NCBI GenBank assembly: GCA_043809315.1 | Contig: JAZDDX010000020.1 | Location: 32,001-96,000, forward strand | Length of the DNA: 64,000 nucleotides | Reading direction: 5' to 3' | Source of the DNA: Pseudomonadota bacterium | GTDB lineage: Bacteria > Bdellovibrionota_G > JALEGL01 > DATDPG01 | In this document: piece by piece, positions 21,604 through 32,189 of the stretch | Layout: the number at the start of each line of letters is the position of its first letter | Position numbering within the stretch: the first letter of the stretch is position 1 | The notes under the pieces: generated by a model | Told to the model about the DNA's origin: nothing | What the model saw: only the letters and a program-made list of their open reading frames with translations | Databases searched by the model: none | Position numbers and translations under genes: made by a program

Positions 21604-23004
21604 TTGACCCCAAGATCCGAAGCCGACCGAGAAAAACGTGCCGTAGCCCTTTCATCAGTGGTGGCGGCGGTTTTTCTGACGGGGATGAAGCTTGCCGTCG
21701 GCCTCTGGACCGGAAGCTTGGGGCTCCTCTCGGAAGCCGCTCATTCGGGGCTCGATTTCGTCGCCGCCGCCATAACGTTCTTCGCGGTCCGGGCGGCGGG
21801 CAAACCGGCCGACCCCGAGCACACCTACGGTCACGGGAAGATCGAGAGCCTTTCGGCCCTCTTTGAGACGTTTCTGCTCCTGGTGACCTGCATCTGGATC
21901 ATCTACGAAGCATGTCGACGCCTCTTCTTTGACGAGGTGCACGTGGATGCCAACATCTACGGGTTCGTCGCAATCGCCCTTTCGATCGTCATCGACTTCT
22001 CGAGATCCCGGGCCTTGATGAAGACGGCCAAGAAATACCGGAGCCAGGCTTTGGAAGCGGATGCCCTTCACTTCTCGACCGACATCTGGTCGTCGCTCGT
22101 CGTTCTCTTCGGTCTCGGAATGGTCTGGCTGGCCCACCGTTTCGATTTCCCTCGCCTGGGGTACGCCGATTCCATCGCCGCGTTGATCGTCGCCGCCATC
22201 GTCATCTGGATCTGCTTCCGCCTGGGGAAACGGACGTTGGACGACCTTTTGGATGCCGTCCCCCCCGATCTCGTCGATCGCGTGCGGAACGCCTCCCGAG
22301 TCGCCGGAGTCGCCGAGGTCAAGCAGGCGCGTCTTCGGAGAAGCGGTCCCACTTTTTTCGCCGACATCACGCTCGCCGTCGGGCAGGATTCCCCGTTCTC
22401 GTTTGCACACCGGATCGCGCATGAGGCGGAGGAGGCGGTTCGAAAGATCCTCCCCGAAGCCGACGTGGTCGTTCATGTCGATCCCGCGGGAGAAGCACAC
22501 GACAACACCGTCGGCCGCATCCGTGAAATTGCTTCCAAACACGGACTTCAGGCACATGCGATCGCCGTATCGTCGGGAGAGAAATCGGGATCGATCGAGA
22601 TGCATCTTGAGATGGACGGAGGTCTTCGGGTGGCCGAGGCCCACGAGAAGGTCAGCGGCTTCGAAAAAGAGCTGCACGACACTCTCCCGAGATTCCCCGT
22701 CATCACCACGCACATCGAGCCGGTAACCGACGGGGTTCTGGACGACGCGGCCGCCAAGCCGGATGACGCCCAGCAGGTCCGGGACCTTCTGCGTGGGATG
22801 AGCCGCGAGAACCGGACGACCCTCGAAGCGCACGACCTCCAGGTCCGCCGGGAGGACGGAAAGCTCGTGATTGTTTTTCACCTGGTCTGTGACGGATCCG
22901 TGAGCCTCGCCGAGGCCCACACCCTGACGGCAAAGATCGAGGCGCGCTTACGCCAACAGATTCACGACGTTGGCCGCATCGTCATTCACACCGAACCGGC
23001 TTAG
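21604..23004 (+). CDS. Cation diffusion facilitator with three tandem C-terminal (ZT_dimer-like) domains
   Basis: [17 protein letters not shown] and ADALHFSTD motifs; repeats ending VVVHVDP, ITTHIEP and IVIHTEP. Start uncertain (TTG 21604 with GGGAG upstream). Confidence 0.92.
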
Positions 23005-24263
23005 CAACAACAGGAAGTCGGCATGTTGGCGACGATCGCCTTGCCGAACGCCGAGGTCTTGAGCTCAGTCGCCCCGTCGATCTGGCGCGCCAAATCGTAG
23101 GTGACCTTCTTCTCCGACACCGCCCGTTCGAGCCCCGCGAGAATCAAATCCGCGACCTCATTCCACCCCAGGTGTTGGAACATCATGACACCGGAGAGGA
23201 TGAGTGACGACGGGTTGACCTTGTCCTGCCCCGCATATTTCGGCGCGGTTCCGTGCGTTGCTTCGAAGAGCGCCACCTCGTCGCTCATGTTGGCGCCCGG
23301 TGCCATCCCTAAGCCCCCTACCTGGGCGGCCGCCGCATCCGACAGATAATCGCCGTTCAGATTCGGCGTCGCGGCGACGTGATACTCCTCGGGCCGCAAG
23401 AGGATCTGCTGGAAGAAGCTGTCGGCGATCCGGTCTTTAAGGACGATCTTCCCGGCCGGCACCTTCCCGTTGAACTTTTCCATCACCTCGTCCTCGGTGA
23501 CAACCCGGTCCACGAACTCCGCCTTCGCAAGCTCATACCCCCAGGTCCGGAAGTACCCTTCCGTGAACTTCATGATGTTCCCTTTGTGGACCAGCGTGAC
23601 CGTCGGCAACTTATGATCGATCGCGTACTGGATCGCCTTTCGGACCAGCCGCTGGCTGTTCGCCTTGCTCATCGGCTTGATGCCGATCGCCGATCCTTTG
23701 GCGACCTTCTTCTTCGATTCCTGGTTGATGACCTCGATGACCCGCTCCGCCGAGGCGCTCCCCGCCTCCCACTCGATCCCGGCGTACACGTCCTCGACGT
23801 TCTCGCGGAAGATCACGAGGTTCATTCGTTCCGGATGCTTGACCGGCGACGGAACACCGGGGATCCAGCGGACCGGCCGAACGCAGGCGAAGAGATCGAG
23901 GTTCTGTCGAAGCGACACGTTGATGCTCCGGATCCCCCCGCCGACCGGGGTGGTCAGGGGCCCCTTGATCGCGACTTTGTACTCCGCGATCGCCTGGAGC
24001 GTGTCGTCCGGAAGCCATGTGTTCGGCCCGTAGATCTCGTTCGCTTTTTCGCCGGCGTAGATCTCGAACCACTCGATCCGGCGGGTTCCCTTGTAGGCGC
24101 GCTCCACGGCGGCATCGAAGACTGCTACGGAAGCCCTCCAGATGTCGGGTCCGATCCCGTCCCCTTCGATGAACGGTATGATCGGATTCTGCCCGACAAT
24201 GAGTTTCCCTTTTTCCGCCCGGATCTTTTCCCCACGCTTCGGGGGGGTCAGTTTCGTAAACAT
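23001..24263 (-). CDS. icd: Isocitrate dehydrogenase (E. coli-type, probably NADP-dependent)
   Basis: [39 protein letters not shown] and [12 protein letters not shown] motifs. Confidence 0.97.
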
Positions 24264-24336
24264 GCGGGCACTTCTATAGAGATTCGGCGCACGAGACAAG
24301 ACGGAATGATGGCAGCCCGAGCATGGCGTGATCCCG

Positions 24337-27267
24337 TTATTCCCCCCCGCCGGTCACGTCTCCATGCGTCCCGACCTCGTCCAGGATGATTCTCAATCCC
24401 GTAACGGAGCGCTGAAAACGGAAGATAATCCGAAGCGCCTGTTTCCGGATTCCAAGCCTCGCCTTGTACGAACCTTTCTGGATCGTAAGCTCGTTGATCT
24501 GCAGTATCTTCCCGATCACCCGCTTCAACTGCGCATTCCCACGAATGTACCTGCTCAGGAGGATGAGGGCGCGGTTGATCCTCAACTTGTGATCCGGACT
24601 CAGCCCTTTGTAACCGTTTTCGAACCGATTGGTGACCTGAAGATCGTCCGGAAGATTTTCGGGCGAAACTTGCTCGGCTTGGGCGGTGATCGCATCCAGA
24701 TCTAGGCTCGCCGATTGCGCGATCTGTTGTTCGACTTCGAAGTCGTCCAGAGAGGTCGCATCCCCACTCTCCGCAGCTGCAGCCTGTTTCGGCTTGATCG
24801 AAATCCCCGTCTTCTTGAGATCGAGGTCGGGGGGGACCTCCTGACTCCCGAATCGATTCAACAGATCTTTCCGATTGGTGGCTTTGAGATCCTGGGCCAG
24901 GTTCGTCCGGAAGGTCCGAAGGCAATCCTCGAGCTGGATCGGGGTCAGGTCACGGATCGGTTTCAGGATGAGCTTTTCGATCTCCAGATAGATCGGCTCC
25001 AATTTCTCCCTGGAGTTCTCGGCGCGGTTCACTTTTTTGAGGAGCGAGATCCAACCGTTGAGACGAGGGATCAGTTCGGCCCGTTCCGAGATCCGCCGGA
25101 TCTCCTCTTCCGTGAACGTTCTCTGAGCTTTGACCGGCTCGGGGCGCCTTTCCGGTTTCGGCTTTCCGACTTGAAGCGCGCGCCGCTCCTCCGCCGCGCG
25201 TACCGCCCGGTCGGCCTCCTCCAATTCCCGGGAGGTCTTCTCCAGGTAGGGATCGGTTCGATCCGCCTCCTCCTGAACCTGATTCATGATTGTTTCGAGC
25301 TGGGCATCGGTCAACTCCACCGCCCCCACTTCGTCGTCCAGCCGGTGAATCCGGGCGTCCACCTCTTTCAGGAGGCCGCTTGCCCTGCTCGCCGTGAGGG
25401 GGCCGTCCTCCAGATTGAAGCTGCTGGCTGCCAGATCTGCGGGTAGAGGGGTCGAGTGAAGCAGACGGGCGATCTCGTACATCTTGTTATTCAGGAGTCC
25501 CAACCTTGCCTGGTGCTGATGCAGAAACCTCAGCAACCGAACGAGCTTCGGGCCGTCCGCGAGAGCGTTCTTTTTCACGGCCTCCCGGATCTGTCTTCTC
25601 AGAATGCCGTCCCGGAACTCGGTGACCCGTTGGGGAAAACCGAAGATCCCTTCCACGGTGCCCATGAAAAACCTCGCGACGATCCAGGCCCGAGTGTGAT
25701 CGCTCACGAGAGCGATCGCCCGGAGATCCTTTGAGCTCAACTCCCTGGTCGAACGGGTGCCCAAGATCATCCACAATCCAAATCGCCCTCCGAGCGGCAT
25801 TTTTTCCAACTCTCTCAGGCGGTCGAGCAGCCACCCCGGGAGATCGTCGGGAGGTTCATCCCGAAGGGCTTTCTCATACGTGTCTTTTGCGAAGTCAGAC
25901 CCTATCTTGAAAAAACTCGGTGGGTTGCCGGAAGACGACCGGCCAGTCCTTTTCTTCGAATTCTGAATATCGCGCGGATCCGGCTGCCGTTTCCGACCCT
26001 CTTGAATCCCCTGCTGCTGGAACCATTCGTACAACGACTCCTCTTCGGAAAGATCGGACTCCTCCAAGTCGGATCGCGCGTACCCTTTTTTCAACTCGCT
26101 CCGAATCGGTTCCATGACCTGGACGGCGCCGGAACCGACCGCCGAATTTTTCGGCAGGCCCGCCGGGTTTGAAAAGGGAACGGAAAGATTCGACGGCTGG
26201 AGGACTTGAAACGGCGCGACCGCCGGCCGGTTGGGCGGGGTCGTCGAAGCGGGGCTTCGGTACGAGGAAACCAGGCGCATGGTCGAACCGCCGCCGGATC
26301 CAACGCCGACCGGCTCGAAAACCGGTTCGAGCGGACCCGGCTCATACAATGGATACGATGAACCCTCCTCCGGCGGATTCGTCCGGAAACCGCGGATCAA
26401 CTCCTCCGCGGTGAGGTTGGACTTCGGGGGGTTCCCCGAACCTTTCGGCTCCACCGCATTCCGCAACCCCCCGATCAGGGTACCGAAACCGCGGATCGAA
26501 GCGAGAGCCGCACCGGCGCATCCTCCCGCAAAACCGAATGCGAAGTAGTTCACCTGGCGCGCGAGATGCGCACCGACCCCCTCGTAATCGTCGTCCAGGT
26601 AGAGCGTAAAGAATGTTCCGACGTTCCATGCGATCCAGAGGGAGAGCAAACCGATCACGATTCCGTCCACGACCAAGAGAATCGGCGCCCCCGGCGTGGC
26701 ATGCGCTGCCAAATACGCGTATCCGAAAACCGCCGCGCCGCTCATCGAGGCCACCCCGAGATCGATGAGAAGCGTTCTCACCGTCTCTTCCCCGTACATC
26801 CGCTCGAACTCGTCGATGAAACCGTTCCAGATCCGCGCCGCCGTCGAAAGATTCACCTGAACCTCTGTCTCCCGAAGGGTCTCGGGGTTGCGGATGACGA
26901 ACGTCGGTTCCACATTTTGGAGGGAGAGAGAGTTAATTCGCAAGAACTCGGGGGAAACCGAGATGCGACCGCTCGAGTCGATCTTGAAAATCTCCCCGGC
27001 GTACCGGATCGGCTTCTGTTCCCCGAACGAATAGCTGACGATCACCGGTGGCGAGGGACGGCTCGGGTCGATCGGGCAAACCGGCGGAAGCGGCTCGTTC
27101 TTCCCGGAGTGTACCTTCAGGTAGATCTTTTCCGGACGAAGTACGCGGACGCTCGCGCGTTCCGAACGATCGAGACTCTGCGCCATTGCGTAGTACGGCC
27201 CCATGCCGATCGAAACGATCAGCACCGCCGCCAGGCCGCTCACGATTTCCCGTTTCCAAAGCCTCAT
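24337..27267 (-). CDS. Large exported multidomain protein with a C-terminal RelE-like domain (candidate polymorphic toxin/effector)
   Basis: Long ORF filling the icd-aconitase gap; signal peptide ending AMA-QS; hydrophobic block; coiled coil; C-terminal [12 protein letters not shown]...YKARLG...LRIIF...[11 protein letters not shown]. Start 27267 or 27303. Confidence 0.7.
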
Positions 27268-27431
27268 GAAGTTCGACTCAAATCGAACCGGCACTCTTAT
27301 CAAACGTGACGCATAAAGTCAATTGGGCTGTCGCTTTTTGTTGTCTGTTTCCAATGGGTTATCTATCTCTGGTGCCGACCGCCGTTCCGTGATGTGACAC
27401 AAAGTTGAAGATCCGTATAATCCCCCCCGCC

Positions 27432-29657: not shown

Positions 29658-30230
29658 CTACTTCACTGTAGCGTCCCGGAAGGCCTTTAGGAGTTCGACG
29701 CTACAAACCAGTGCATTCCAAAGTTCCGGGTTCTTATCTTTGGAGTTCATGAACGTCCAGAGCACGGGAATCCCTTTTTGGTCCCCGCGTGGATCCAGTT
29801 CGCCCCATGCATTGATCTCACGCGCGAGGCTCACGCAATTTCCGGGGTTTCTGGAACAGTCTATCTTTGTCGTCTTGGCCCATCCCTCGTCATCAACGAC
29901 CCATTTCCAGACGATCTTCGGGTCGAAGCTGAAAGCGTAGGTCCGATGAACACATCGCTCTCGGTCTTCGTCCCATCGTTCGCAGAAGTCGAATCGGAAA
30001 ACGCCGTCCGCCGGATCGATCTCGACCGTATGAAGTTGTCGCTTTTCCTCGTGACGTGCAAACGTCAGTCGCTGATCAGCACCGATGATGACTTTTGCGG
30101 GAAAGGTGACTTTGACGTGATTTTCCCCGCATTCCGCGGGCTTCTCGAACGTTCGGTCGAAGACATCATGCGACCCCGCCGTTGCAACAGGAACCAGGAA
30201 AAGAACGGCACCTGCAAGAAGTCGTTTCAT
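29658..30230 (-). CDS. Secreted hypothetical protein with six Cys
   Basis: Signal peptide MKRLLAGAVLFLVPVATA; paralogous remnant directly upstream. Confidence 0.8.
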   Translation of the reverse strand: MKRLLAGAVLFLVPVATAGSHDVFDRTFEKPAECGENHVKVTFPAKVIIGADQRLTFARHEEKRQLHTVEIDPADGVFRFDFCERWDEDRERCVHRTYAFSFDPKIVWKWVVDDEGWAKTTKIDCSRNPGNCVSLAREINAWGELDPRGDQKGIPVLWTFMNSKDKNPELWNALVCSVELLKAFRDATVK

Positions 30231-30452: not shown

Positions 30453-30650
30453 TCAACGCGGGGTCTTAAACCCGGCCTGCTTGTGCGCCCCATCGCAATA
30501 CGGCTTCTTCGCGCTCGCCCCGCACCGGCAAAGTGCGGTCGGCGACTCTCCGCTGCCTCCGATCACTTTCCCGTCCGCCGCGAGCAGCGCAAAGTCCCCC
30601 GTCACGAGGATCGGTCCGTCATCCAACAGCTTGATTTCGGTCTTTTTCAT
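30453..30650 (-). CDS. CDGSH iron-sulfur domain protein
   Basis: DGPILV...ALCRCGASAKKPYCDGAH motif. Confidence 0.93.
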   Translation of the reverse strand: MKKTEIKLLDDGPILVTGDFALLAADGKVIGGSGESPTALCRCGASAKKPYCDGAHKQAGFKTPR

Positions 30651-30680: not shown

Positions 30681-32189
30681 CTAAAACAAGTACCTCAGGT
30701 CCATTCCCAGGAAGATGTTGTACCCCTCCTGGTTCTGGACGTACCCCTTCCCGGTGGCCCGCTCCAAAGCTGCGGTCGGCGAAACTACGAGCCGGCCGTC
30801 CGCCAATAACCAGTCAGGCTGAATCTCCAGCCGCACCCTTTGATCGGGAACCTGATAGGCGGGGTAAATCGTCTGGATCGGACTCCGGTCGGGGGCTTTC
30901 GACAACCGCTCGCGAATCTCGTACCCGAGGGAGGTCTTGAAGATGAAGCGAGGGGAACGGAAATATCGGCCGATGAAATAAAATCCCAAGGCACCGGGGC
31001 CGAGGGGAGTGCCGAGCGAACGTCCCTTGAACGTGAGGCCATCCGAAAACGAGCTATGCGAGTAGGCGACCTGCGACGTGCGGACCCACTCGAACGCCAG
31101 ATCCAATTTCCCCGCGGGATCGACCCTCGGAATCAGAAGGCCGGCCAGCGTGGCGAAGTCGCGCGGGTTCACCAGAGCCTTGCTGCAGCAGTCCTCCATC
31201 ATCGCCTCGAAATACGGTTCGATCCCCAAGTTCGGAATCCGGTACCGGCCGGTTAAGAGAAAGTTCCGGTTCGCGGAGGAGTTCCCTCCCTTTCCGAAGT
31301 AGTCGGTGATGATCACGGCCGGGTTGTTCGTTGAAGCACCGGTGCCGCCGAAGACAACCGTTCCGCCGATTCCGAACTCGAGGTTCGGTGTCGGGCTGGA
31401 ATCGAAGAAGAAGCCGAAGAGACGCGCATTCGGGAAATTGTAATGATCCCCCAGAAACGCCAGGAACCCTTCGAACTGCGTCGGACCCAGGAATTTCAGG
31501 AATCCGGGAGGGACGACCGGCTGATCGGAACGGATCCGCCCCATCCAGAGCGGCCTCGTGTCCCCCGAGAAAAGAAGATGGGTTGCGCGACCGTTCCCCC
31601 ATTCGATGTTCCCGAGTCCTCCTTCGACGGCGAGATCCCGGATCCGGATCGAGCCGAACCCCTCGCCCAGGAAGAACTCGGAGGCGTCCCCGCCGAACTC
31701 ATCGCGCGACGAGTAGAGGAAGTTGGGACGGGCCGAAAAACCGAAATACGGGGTCAACGTCCCCTCGATCCGGGCACCGATCGATTGCATGAACCCGCCG
31801 CCGTTAAACATCCCGCCGTTCTGCGCAAGGGACGGGTTGCTGGTCGCGGCGATCCCGATCAGCTGGATCGGGTACGATTTCACGTATGAGGTACCGATCT
31901 GAGTCTCCATCCGGAGATGAAGCGGGCCCGCTTCGATCGACTCGCGCCGGAGCCGTTTGACCTCCAAAACTTGAGATTCTTTCTCCGAATCATCGGTCAG
32001 TTCGAACCCCGTTAAGAGGGTCGAGTAGTAGTTTCGCGAGAGAACGGAGCTTGCGGAAACCCATCCGGTCTTCGTCTGCGCATGGAGGAGATGATCGATC
32101 ACCGAGAAGTCATAATCGGAATGCGAGAGGGTGAGTGCGAACACCGAAACCGGGGCCAACAGAATGAAAAGAATGCCGAGTCTTTTCAT
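30681..32189 (-). CDS. Capsule assembly Wzi-like outer membrane beta-barrel
   Basis: Signal peptide from ATG 32189; WGNGR..HLLFS...P, FLG..QFE.F and G.SLG.PLG motifs; terminal DLRYLF. Confidence 0.78.
   Translation of the reverse strand: MKRLGILFILLAPVSVFALTLSHSDYDFSVIDHLLHAQTKTGWVSASSVLSRNYYSTLLTGFELTDDSEKESQVLEVKRLRRESIEAGPLHLRMETQIGTSYVKSYPIQLIGIAATSNPSLAQNGGMFNGGGFMQSIGARIEGTLTPYFGFSARPNFLYSSRDEFGGDASEFFLGEGFGSIRIRDLAVEGGLGNIEWGNGRATHLLFSGDTRPLWMGRIRSDQPVVPPGFLKFLGPTQFEGFLAFLGDHYNFPNARLFGFFFDSSPTPNLEFGIGGTVVFGGTGASTNNPAVIITDYFGKGGNSSANRNFLLTGRYRIPNLGIEPYFEAMMEDCCSKALVNPRDFATLAGLLIPRVDPAGKLDLAFEWVRTSQVAYSHSSFSDGLTFKGRSLGTPLGPGALGFYFIGRYFRSPRFIFKTSLGYEIRERLSKAPDRSPIQTIYPAYQVPDQRVRLEIQPDWLLADGRLVVSPTAALERATGKGYVQNQEGYNIFLGMDLRYLF

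Follow-up and report, generated by a model that had tools for sequence, protein, structure and literature searches.

A predicted RelE/ParE-fold domain ends a putative Sec-targeted membrane protein encoded without an adjacent antitoxin gene in a Bdellovibrionota_G bacterium

A protein of 976 amino acids (aa), encoded in the DNA of a Pseudomonadota bacterium of the GTDB lineage Bdellovibrionota_G, ends in a domain that very probably adopts the RelE/ParE fold. Its gene occupies positions 24337-27267 of the window, the whole stretch of 64,000 nucleotides (nt) that was analysed (positions 32,001 to 96,000 of the forward strand of contig JAZDDX010000020.1, assembly GCA_043809315.1). RelE-fold toxins are nearly always seen as small antitoxin-paired proteins or as the tips of polymorphic toxins that have an immunity gene; here, the fold terminates a Sec-targeted membrane protein of about 1000 aa that has neither an antitoxin nor an immunity partner. 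The reading that we favour, at a probability of roughly 0.4, is that of a membrane-anchored protein whose cytoplasmic end would be a RelE-type RNase, silenced within the polypeptide and freed by an envelope signal.

The fold assignment comes from structure prediction. An AlphaFold2 (AF2) model of residues 860-976, built from a 3-row alignment, has a predicted local distance difference test score (pLDDT) of 83.3 and a predicted template modelling score (pTM) of 0.78, and it orders the terminal domain as one strand, three helices, and three strands; within the full-length model, the domain has a pLDDT of 81-91. When the C-terminal domain was compared with the PDB by Foldseek, each of the 29 entries listed from rank 1 to rank 39 was a toxin of a toxin-antitoxin (TA) system, the names including HigB2, YoeB/ParE, YafQ, RelE, and HP0894, with probabilities of 0.96-1.00 and target-normalised TM-scores of up to 0.73. 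These predictions make a RelE/ParE fold highly likely and agree with a preliminary description of this DNA, which had proposed a RelE-like domain at the C-terminus.

The domain has few relatives in sequence. When 1.84 billion representative proteins were searched exhaustively with phmmer, two stand-alone proteins were recovered besides the protein itself, of 134 aa (P0002, E = 1.9e-6) and 187 aa (P0003, E = 2e-4), and a C-terminal profile search retrieved the same two and nothing more from 2158 candidates. All three members end in the tail E-V-G-x-H-x-x-V-T-G-G, and they share, at identities of 28-33%, one Arg in strand 2, another in strand 3, and the C-terminal His, bearing out the conserved Arg and His residues to which the preliminary description had pointed. 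According to Zhang et al. (2012, PMC3482391), [KR] and R form the signature of the Tox-RelE family, matching R61 and R81 of RelE; the equivalence of the two Arg residues to R61 and R81 is based on sequence alignments and not on structure superposition.

Profile comparisons place the domain closest to the YafQ family but outside every described family of the RelE/ParE superfamily. Aligned by hhalign with eight YafQ-family sequences from related genomes, the 3-member alignment matched with a probability of 47% (E = 2e-4) over 84 columns spanning the entire domain, while matches to the genome's own two toxins, each taken singly, were not significant. Scans of the genome with PF15738 and PF05016 found these two other loci and not this one, and the domain shows neither the hidden Markov model (HMM) match nor the four invariant columns of the YafQ family PF15738. 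Two further matches point in the same direction, all of these sequence links being weak: the domain aligns with the RelE part of the PADLOC model CARF7--CARF_RelE (E = 0.05, profile positions 271-357 of 359), and P0002 aligns with PHROG 1213, "RelE-like toxin" (E = 0.01, positions 6-86 of 88). Scans of metagenome contigs with the 3-member profile and with P0003 yielded nothing, nor did a scan of viral contigs with the 3-member profile. The domain may have ribosome-dependent mRNase activity of the RelE/YafQ type. That it is instead a ParE-like gyrase poison, with the rest of the protein working in either of the ways discussed below, is distinctly improbable: Foldseek does list ParE and YoeB/ParE structures (6n90 in second place, 5cw7 and 6xrw between ranks 45 and 47), and, according to Gerdes (2025, PMC11980606), sequence families fail to separate RelE from ParE cleanly, but the top TM-scores go to YafQ and RelE-type RNases, with ParE entries lower (probability 0.87-0.89), no family other than YafQ gives a meaningful profile match, and the weak PADLOC and PHROG matches are both to RelE models.

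A PDB sequence search with the 3-member profile returned DAF and CpxP at E values of 0.14-0.24, which were set aside as chance matches. In all three members, V-T-G-G is followed by one or two residues before the end of the protein, and the tail in the window (24340-24375) reads G-G-G-E; this is reminiscent of the Gly-Gly-Glu with which the Pup modifier terminates, probably by coincidence.

The gene itself is genuine. Its GC content by codon position (0.61/0.44/0.73) follows a pattern like that of its neighbours icd, acnA, CDF, and M20 peptidase (GC at third positions, 0.75-0.83), and this likeness, together with the partial conservation of the protein in other genomes and the relatives of its last domain, establishes the open reading frame (ORF) as real. 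A TTG codon at 27303, 36 nt upstream of the ATG, is a possible alternative start that would add 12 residues. The GC content of the gene gives no hint of foreign origin. A search of sequencing runs listed no RNA run and only one DNA run, with a share of 0.06. The anatomy outlined in the preliminary description (signal, Gly/Ala-rich block, Pro/Ser linker, charged region, acidic segment, and basic end) is present, as judged by composition, AF2, and eye (Table 1).

No antitoxin gene adjoins the locus. As had been described, the stop codon lies 73 bp from icd, and the flanking genes are, by Pfam, those of isocitrate dehydrogenase downstream and of a divergently oriented aconitase (acnA) upstream. 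There is no small ORF between the gene and either icd or the aconitase gene and no adjacent antitoxin candidate, so the locus lacks the adjacent, co-transcribed antitoxin that is the hallmark of a type II TA module. In the genome, neither the membrane domain nor the RelE-like domain occurs in a second copy. The icd neighbourhoods of all four other genomes of the same family contain neither this gene nor acnA.

The hydrophobic block recurs elsewhere. We designate the genome of the window G000 and the four genomes with homologous proteins G006, G008, G009, and G015. A profile of the membrane domain matches 5 of 17 genomes of the phylum (4 of 13 high-quality genomes), with one copy in each, and finds nothing in four genomes of G000's own family. 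A scan of all species genomes gave 154 candidate stretches, two of which were confirmed as the membrane domain, and the confirmed relatives are recorded as uncultured Oligoflexia and Bdellovibrionales. The domain begins with an amphipathic helix (W-N-G-F ... Y-G-E), continues with two hydrophobic helices connected by a tight, uncharged turn, and closes with an acidic loop, a Gly-rich third segment, and a cluster of Lys and Arg; glycine and alanine each make up 14.6% of residues 141-270. The homologues have similar N-termini with a common G-P-[YF] motif, and pairwise BLAST of the five proteins detects similarity in the N-terminal and membrane parts only. Judged from this sequence conservation, the block is a conserved domain confined to the lineage and not generic hydrophobic sequence.

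Searches against other collections add little to this picture. Word-indexed homologue searches returned only the protein itself, both with the whole sequence (1 of 7998 candidates) and with residues 135-300 (1 of 1714 candidates). Pfam contains no domain that matches the full protein or its four homologues, PDB sequence searches with the protein and with three of the homologues returned at most a chance match to LSm7 (E = 0.6), and searches of the homologues against Pfam, PADLOC, and PDB sequences gave nothing significant. No PADLOC defence-system model matches any family member beyond the weak RelE match, and a recognisable toxin fold at the C-terminus is confined to the G000 protein. In the ESM Atlas, residues 471-860 retrieved nothing usable, and the leads for residues 130-300 were all below 0.9, including one PT-TG cluster at 0.85. 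An identity of the membrane block with PT-TG was rejected, as Pfam PF14449 matches no family member in the five genomes.

Strongly hydrophobic helices that follow a Sec signal normally stop transfer and anchor in the inner membrane (Sec/signal recognition particle insertion). All five homologues have a second helix of strong hydrophobicity (Kyte-Doolittle values over 19 residues of 2.0-2.7 in four and of 1.87 in G009), and because this helix lies behind a Sec signal, the protein would be expected to anchor in the inner membrane of the cell that produces it. With the N-terminus outside, three spans would place the C-terminus in the cytoplasm, and two or four spans would place it in the periplasm. 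The turn between helices 1 and 2 contains no Lys or Arg in any of the five homologues, the N-terminal flank is net acidic in four, the loop after helix 2 is likewise net acidic in four, and the tail of segment 3 with its flank carries 4-9 Lys and Arg residues in all five. Because this positive cluster past the third segment is present in every homologue, the charges favour three spans and a cytoplasmic C-terminus, although such a charge pattern is only a heuristic, the third segment being marginally hydrophobic. The balance thus tips modestly toward a C-terminus that lies in the cytoplasm.

The preliminary description had read the hydrophobic block differently, as the device by which a toxin translocates itself into other cells while being made safe by export. 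As a conserved membrane domain shared by 5 of the 17 genomes, the block is instead expected to anchor the protein in its producer, and the charges of all five homologues favour, heuristically, the very arrangement that the description had set against export, a C-terminus held in the producer's own cytoplasm. Paralogs with the same N-terminus, which it had proposed to look for, do not occur in this genome; relatives at the level of orthologues, with unrelated C-termini, do occur in other genomes, and they keep an effector-like reading open. In that account, the protein would cross or leave the inner membrane, its hydrophobic hairpin would enter the membrane of another cell (prey, host, or competitor), and the C-terminal RNase would reach the target cytoplasm; no immunity would be needed because the toxin would never meet the producer's ribosomes.

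We regard this exported effector as possible but somewhat unlikely. The G000 protein and its homologues have a Sec-type signal peptide, a conserved N-terminal module precedes unrelated C-termini in five genomes, as in polymorphic toxins and effector families, and the toxin-fold domain stands at the extreme C-terminus. An immunity or antitoxin candidate lies downstream at none of the four readable loci, where the next genes are icd (G000), DnaK (G006), FixG (G009), and an IS91 transposase (G015), the G008 locus being cut by a contig end. RelE needs ribosomes, so the periplasm would make sense only as a way station, and the weakness of the third segment in two to three of the five homologues would allow a hairpin with both ends outside. 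The relatives in the Oligoflexia and Bdellovibrionales belong to a group that includes predators, and Tox-RelE is already known in polymorphic toxins with Sec signals (PMC3482391). Against export stand the two features of topology, namely hydrophobic helices that normally halt transfer in the producer's membrane and a positive-inside pattern that points to a cytoplasmic C-terminus in all five homologues, and several features of organization: Pfam finds no RHS, filamentous repeat, HINT, or pre-toxin domain and its PT-TG model misses the family, the genome contains no paralogous cassettes, the variable part extends over 500-700 aa and is not the sharp exchange of a toxin of ~100-150 aa, and the gene is not linked to any machinery for secretion or translocation. 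Moreover, predation is not established in this lineage, and nothing indicates export beyond the inner membrane.

Under the favoured reading, a Sec-targeted protein would be anchored in the producer's own inner membrane through the conserved hydrophobic domain, with its N-terminal ~110 aa in the periplasm and its linker, helical region, and RelE/ParE-fold domain most likely on the cytoplasmic side. As there is no separate antitoxin, the domain would have to be silenced within the same polypeptide. It could be kept inactive in cis by the membrane tether, possibly also by the acidic segment just upstream, in which a helix is predicted at residues 842-866, directly ahead of the RelE-like domain; an acidic helix preceding a basic domain is a candidate built-in inhibitor. 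The domain would then be unleashed only on an envelope signal, for example, stress, phage attack, or proteolysis.

A number of observations weigh against this reading. With respect to topology, a biological hydrophobicity scale rates the third segment as marginal in three proteins (G000, G015, and G006) and puts it under the cut-off in the other two (G009 and G008), and AF2 splits it into two helices at low confidence; so weak a segment leaves appreciable room for a hairpin with a periplasmic C-terminus. With respect to the domain, the best Foldseek E value is only 1.2e-3 and the AF2 alignment is only three rows deep, the RelE/ParE superfamily models of Pfam and NCBIfam all fail to match, even with E values of up to 10 allowed, and hhalign against 16 PF05016 sequences gives a non-significant probability of 0.5%. 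Only one of the four invariant YafQ columns (His/Leu/Asp/His) is kept, the C-terminal His, which makes catalysis no more than putative. With respect to biology, a cytoplasmic RelE that is not neutralised is expected to be harmful, yet no inhibitor has been identified, and the gene is surrounded by housekeeping genes, with no defence island. Finally, the 500-700 residues past the linker are unrelated among the five homologues (pairwise BLAST); unrelated C-termini that match no PADLOC effector are unexpected for a family of defence sensor-effectors.

Some of the same observations could also be explained if the domain were a non-toxic derivative, a basic module that binds RNA, ribosomes, or proteins, needs no antitoxin, and terminates a membrane protein that evolves fast and is specific to the lineage. 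Consistent with this are the lack of an adjacent antitoxin gene and of any match to a curated RelE/ParE model, the loss of three of the four invariant YafQ columns, the presence of T-G-G where the RelE tail has Y87, the housekeeping neighbourhood, and the unrelated, unrecognisable C-termini of the other family members. We consider such a derivative unlikely, since two Arg residues and a C-terminal His that are invariant across relatives only 28-33% identical suggest a conserved and not a decayed site, and the stand-alone relatives (134 and 187 aa) are near the size of toxins.

Table 1 Features of the gene, its product, and its downstream neighbour (positions in the window)
Feature	Position	Strand	Remark
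Whole coding sequence, 976 aa + stop	24337-27267	-	ATG at 27267, stop 24337-24339
Sec-type signal peptide, residues 1-29	27181-27267	-	Recognised by eye: basic n-region, hydrophobic core, A-M-A before Q30
Pro/Ser-rich N-terminal region, residues 30-140	26848-27180	-	Poorly conserved; predicted periplasmic (low confidence)
Lineage-specific conserved membrane domain, residues 141-272	26452-26847	-	Profile in 5 of 17 phylum genomes
Pro/Ser/Gly-rich linker, residues 273-470	25858-26451	-	Predicted disordered
Charged helical region, residues 471-805	24853-25857	-	No relatives detected
Acidic segment, residues 806-875	24643-24852	-	15 D+E versus 4 K+R
Divergent RelE/ParE-fold (BECR) domain (predicted), residues 876-976	24340-24642	-	Basic, 19 K+R versus 7 D+E
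Spacer to icd, 73 bp	24264-24336	-	No terminator-like site found inside
icd	23001-24263	-	Isocitrate dehydrogenase by Pfam; downstream of the gene

Between the membrane domain and the terminal domain, residues 271-470 are 12% proline, 13% serine, and 9.5% glycine, and long helices in residues ~471-805 are predicted by AF2 at low confidence only. The full-length AF2 model (mean pLDDT 46.5) is too poor to settle either the topology or the packing of the domains.

Among known systems, the nearest in organization are the polymorphic toxins of the Tox-RelE type (PMC3482391), which likewise are large proteins with a Sec signal that finish in a RelE-fold module and bear the [KR]/R signature. Those proteins carry RHS repeats or HINT together with an Imm54 immunity gene, whereas the protein described here has none of these; it also lacks a releasing peptidase and cassettes, and its N-terminal module is a hydrophobic membrane domain. 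More generally, of the features that define polymorphic toxins, the protein has an N-terminal secretion signal (by eye) and a toxin-fold domain in its last 101 residues, and it has no downstream immunity gene, no RHS or filamentous repeats, and no releasing peptidase or pre-toxin domain. Alternative C-termini appear in the sense that the homologues of the four other genomes are unrelated at the C-terminus, while G000 itself has neither paralogs nor cassettes. The family thus looks effector-like, with a common module, unrelated ends, and no immunity genes, and is without the other hallmarks of polymorphic toxins. One of the genomes, G015, encodes on another contig a true PT-TG pre-toxin protein (G015:C29:1179-1340, L017; PF14449, E = 2.4e-7, 601-aa frame), indicating that classical polymorphic toxins do exist in this phylum.

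The chlamydial Inc proteins, an analogy only, also have two close hydrophobic helices with a very short turn and a variable, helix-rich C-terminus, and they too are a family united by the hydrophobic module alone. They differ in having a type III signal and hydrophobic lobes that are not known to be conserved in sequence; here, there is a Sec signal and a conserved module, with no known link to a secretion system and no known host. It is conceivable, if quite unlikely, that the five proteins are Inc-like membrane-inserting effectors, each placing a Sec-exported hairpin in a prey or host membrane and a fast-evolving effector in the cytoplasm of the victim, in this case a RelE-type RNase without an immunity gene.

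The canonical YafQ-DinJ and RelE/ParE pairs share the predicted fold and, in the YafQ family, a G-T-H motif near the C-terminus. Their toxins are stand-alone proteins of ~90 aa that match Pfam clearly and have an antitoxin upstream, whereas the domain described here has no Pfam match and is without the internal His, Leu, and Asp columns of YafQ. Two canonical toxins occur elsewhere in the same genome. A YafQ-family toxin of 94 aa (Pfam E = 7.5e-26) lies on the same contig outside the window (G000:C20:131198-131458; L013:1492-2066), with a 96-aa ORF, presumably a DinJ-like antitoxin, directly upstream and overlapping it by one base, and a RelE/ParE toxin of 90 aa (PF05016, E = 1.2e-11) lies at G000:C16:104519-104761 (L015:1258-1761), with a 72-aa ORF upstream. 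Ordinary type II pairs thus exist in this genome alongside the fused domain.

Two further systems resemble the favoured reading in part. ToxM, of the type II system ToxM/ToxR, is a proposed envelope-coupled toxin that likewise combines a BECR toxin domain with a transmembrane region and an extracytoplasmic part (Gerdes, 2025, mBio; PMC11980606). It has its BECR domain at the cytoplasmic N-terminus, a structured periplasmic C-terminus, and a co-transcribed upstream antitoxin of the ribbon-helix-helix/helix-turn-helix type, whereas the protein in the window has the inverted order, about 1000 aa, and no antitoxin gene, and so differs from the ToxM/ToxR type. CARF-RelE fusions, too, are larger sensor proteins that carry RelE as their C-terminal effector and have no separate antitoxin; the protein described here differs from them in having no CARF domain and no CRISPR context and in being membrane-anchored and not soluble. 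CARF7--CARF_RelE is the only model in the PADLOC library that touches the domain directly, at an E value far below the significance needed for membership.

Multidomain and membrane BECR toxins are in print, and Gerdes (2025) left out multidomain BECR proteins without an identifiable antitoxin (both PMC11980606), such that the antitoxin-less multidomain class is acknowledged yet unexplored. A literature search found no description of this architecture and no case from the Bdellovibrionota, although Table S2 of PMC11980606 may list similar proteins; the word "Bdellovibrio" has no occurrence in PMC3482391 or PMC13483458. If the domain is active, it would represent either a RelE-type RNase kept silent within a single membrane-tethered polypeptide or a route by which a Bdellovibrio-like cell delivers a RelE effector. 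Two small new sequence families also emerge, a conserved membrane domain present in 5 of the 17 phylum genomes and a RelE-like subfamily to which 3 of 1.84 billion representative proteins belong.

The family genes are not syntenic between genomes. The G006 copy lies between a PhyH oxygenase gene and DnaK, and the G009 copy is flanked by a Usp gene on one side and the cbb3 oxidase/FixG genes on the other, with DnaK and FixG, respectively, downstream and convergent. In G015, an IS91-family transposase gene (Y2_Tnp, E = 4e-26; L004:2459-3352) follows 37 bp downstream on the same strand, a possible hint of the mobility of that copy. Genes for 2-oxoglutarate/Fe(II) oxygenases lie just upstream of the family gene in G006 and G009 (PhyH and 2OG-FeII_Oxy_5; L005:3691-4557 and L012:3905-4525), and there is none in the window.

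Minor features were noted at and around icd and the aconitase gene. The icd matches in G001 (L019) and G003 (L021) contain one in-frame stop each (TGA and TAG), which may merely reflect a frame that extends past the start of the gene. In the window, the aconitase gene is immediately followed by an ORF of 190 aa (29658-30230, - strand) with a signal-like N-terminus and no Pfam match. A 65-aa ORF at 30453-30650 (- strand) has the pattern Cys-x-Cys ... Cys-Asp-Gly-Ala-His, which we take to resemble a CDGSH iron-sulfur domain.

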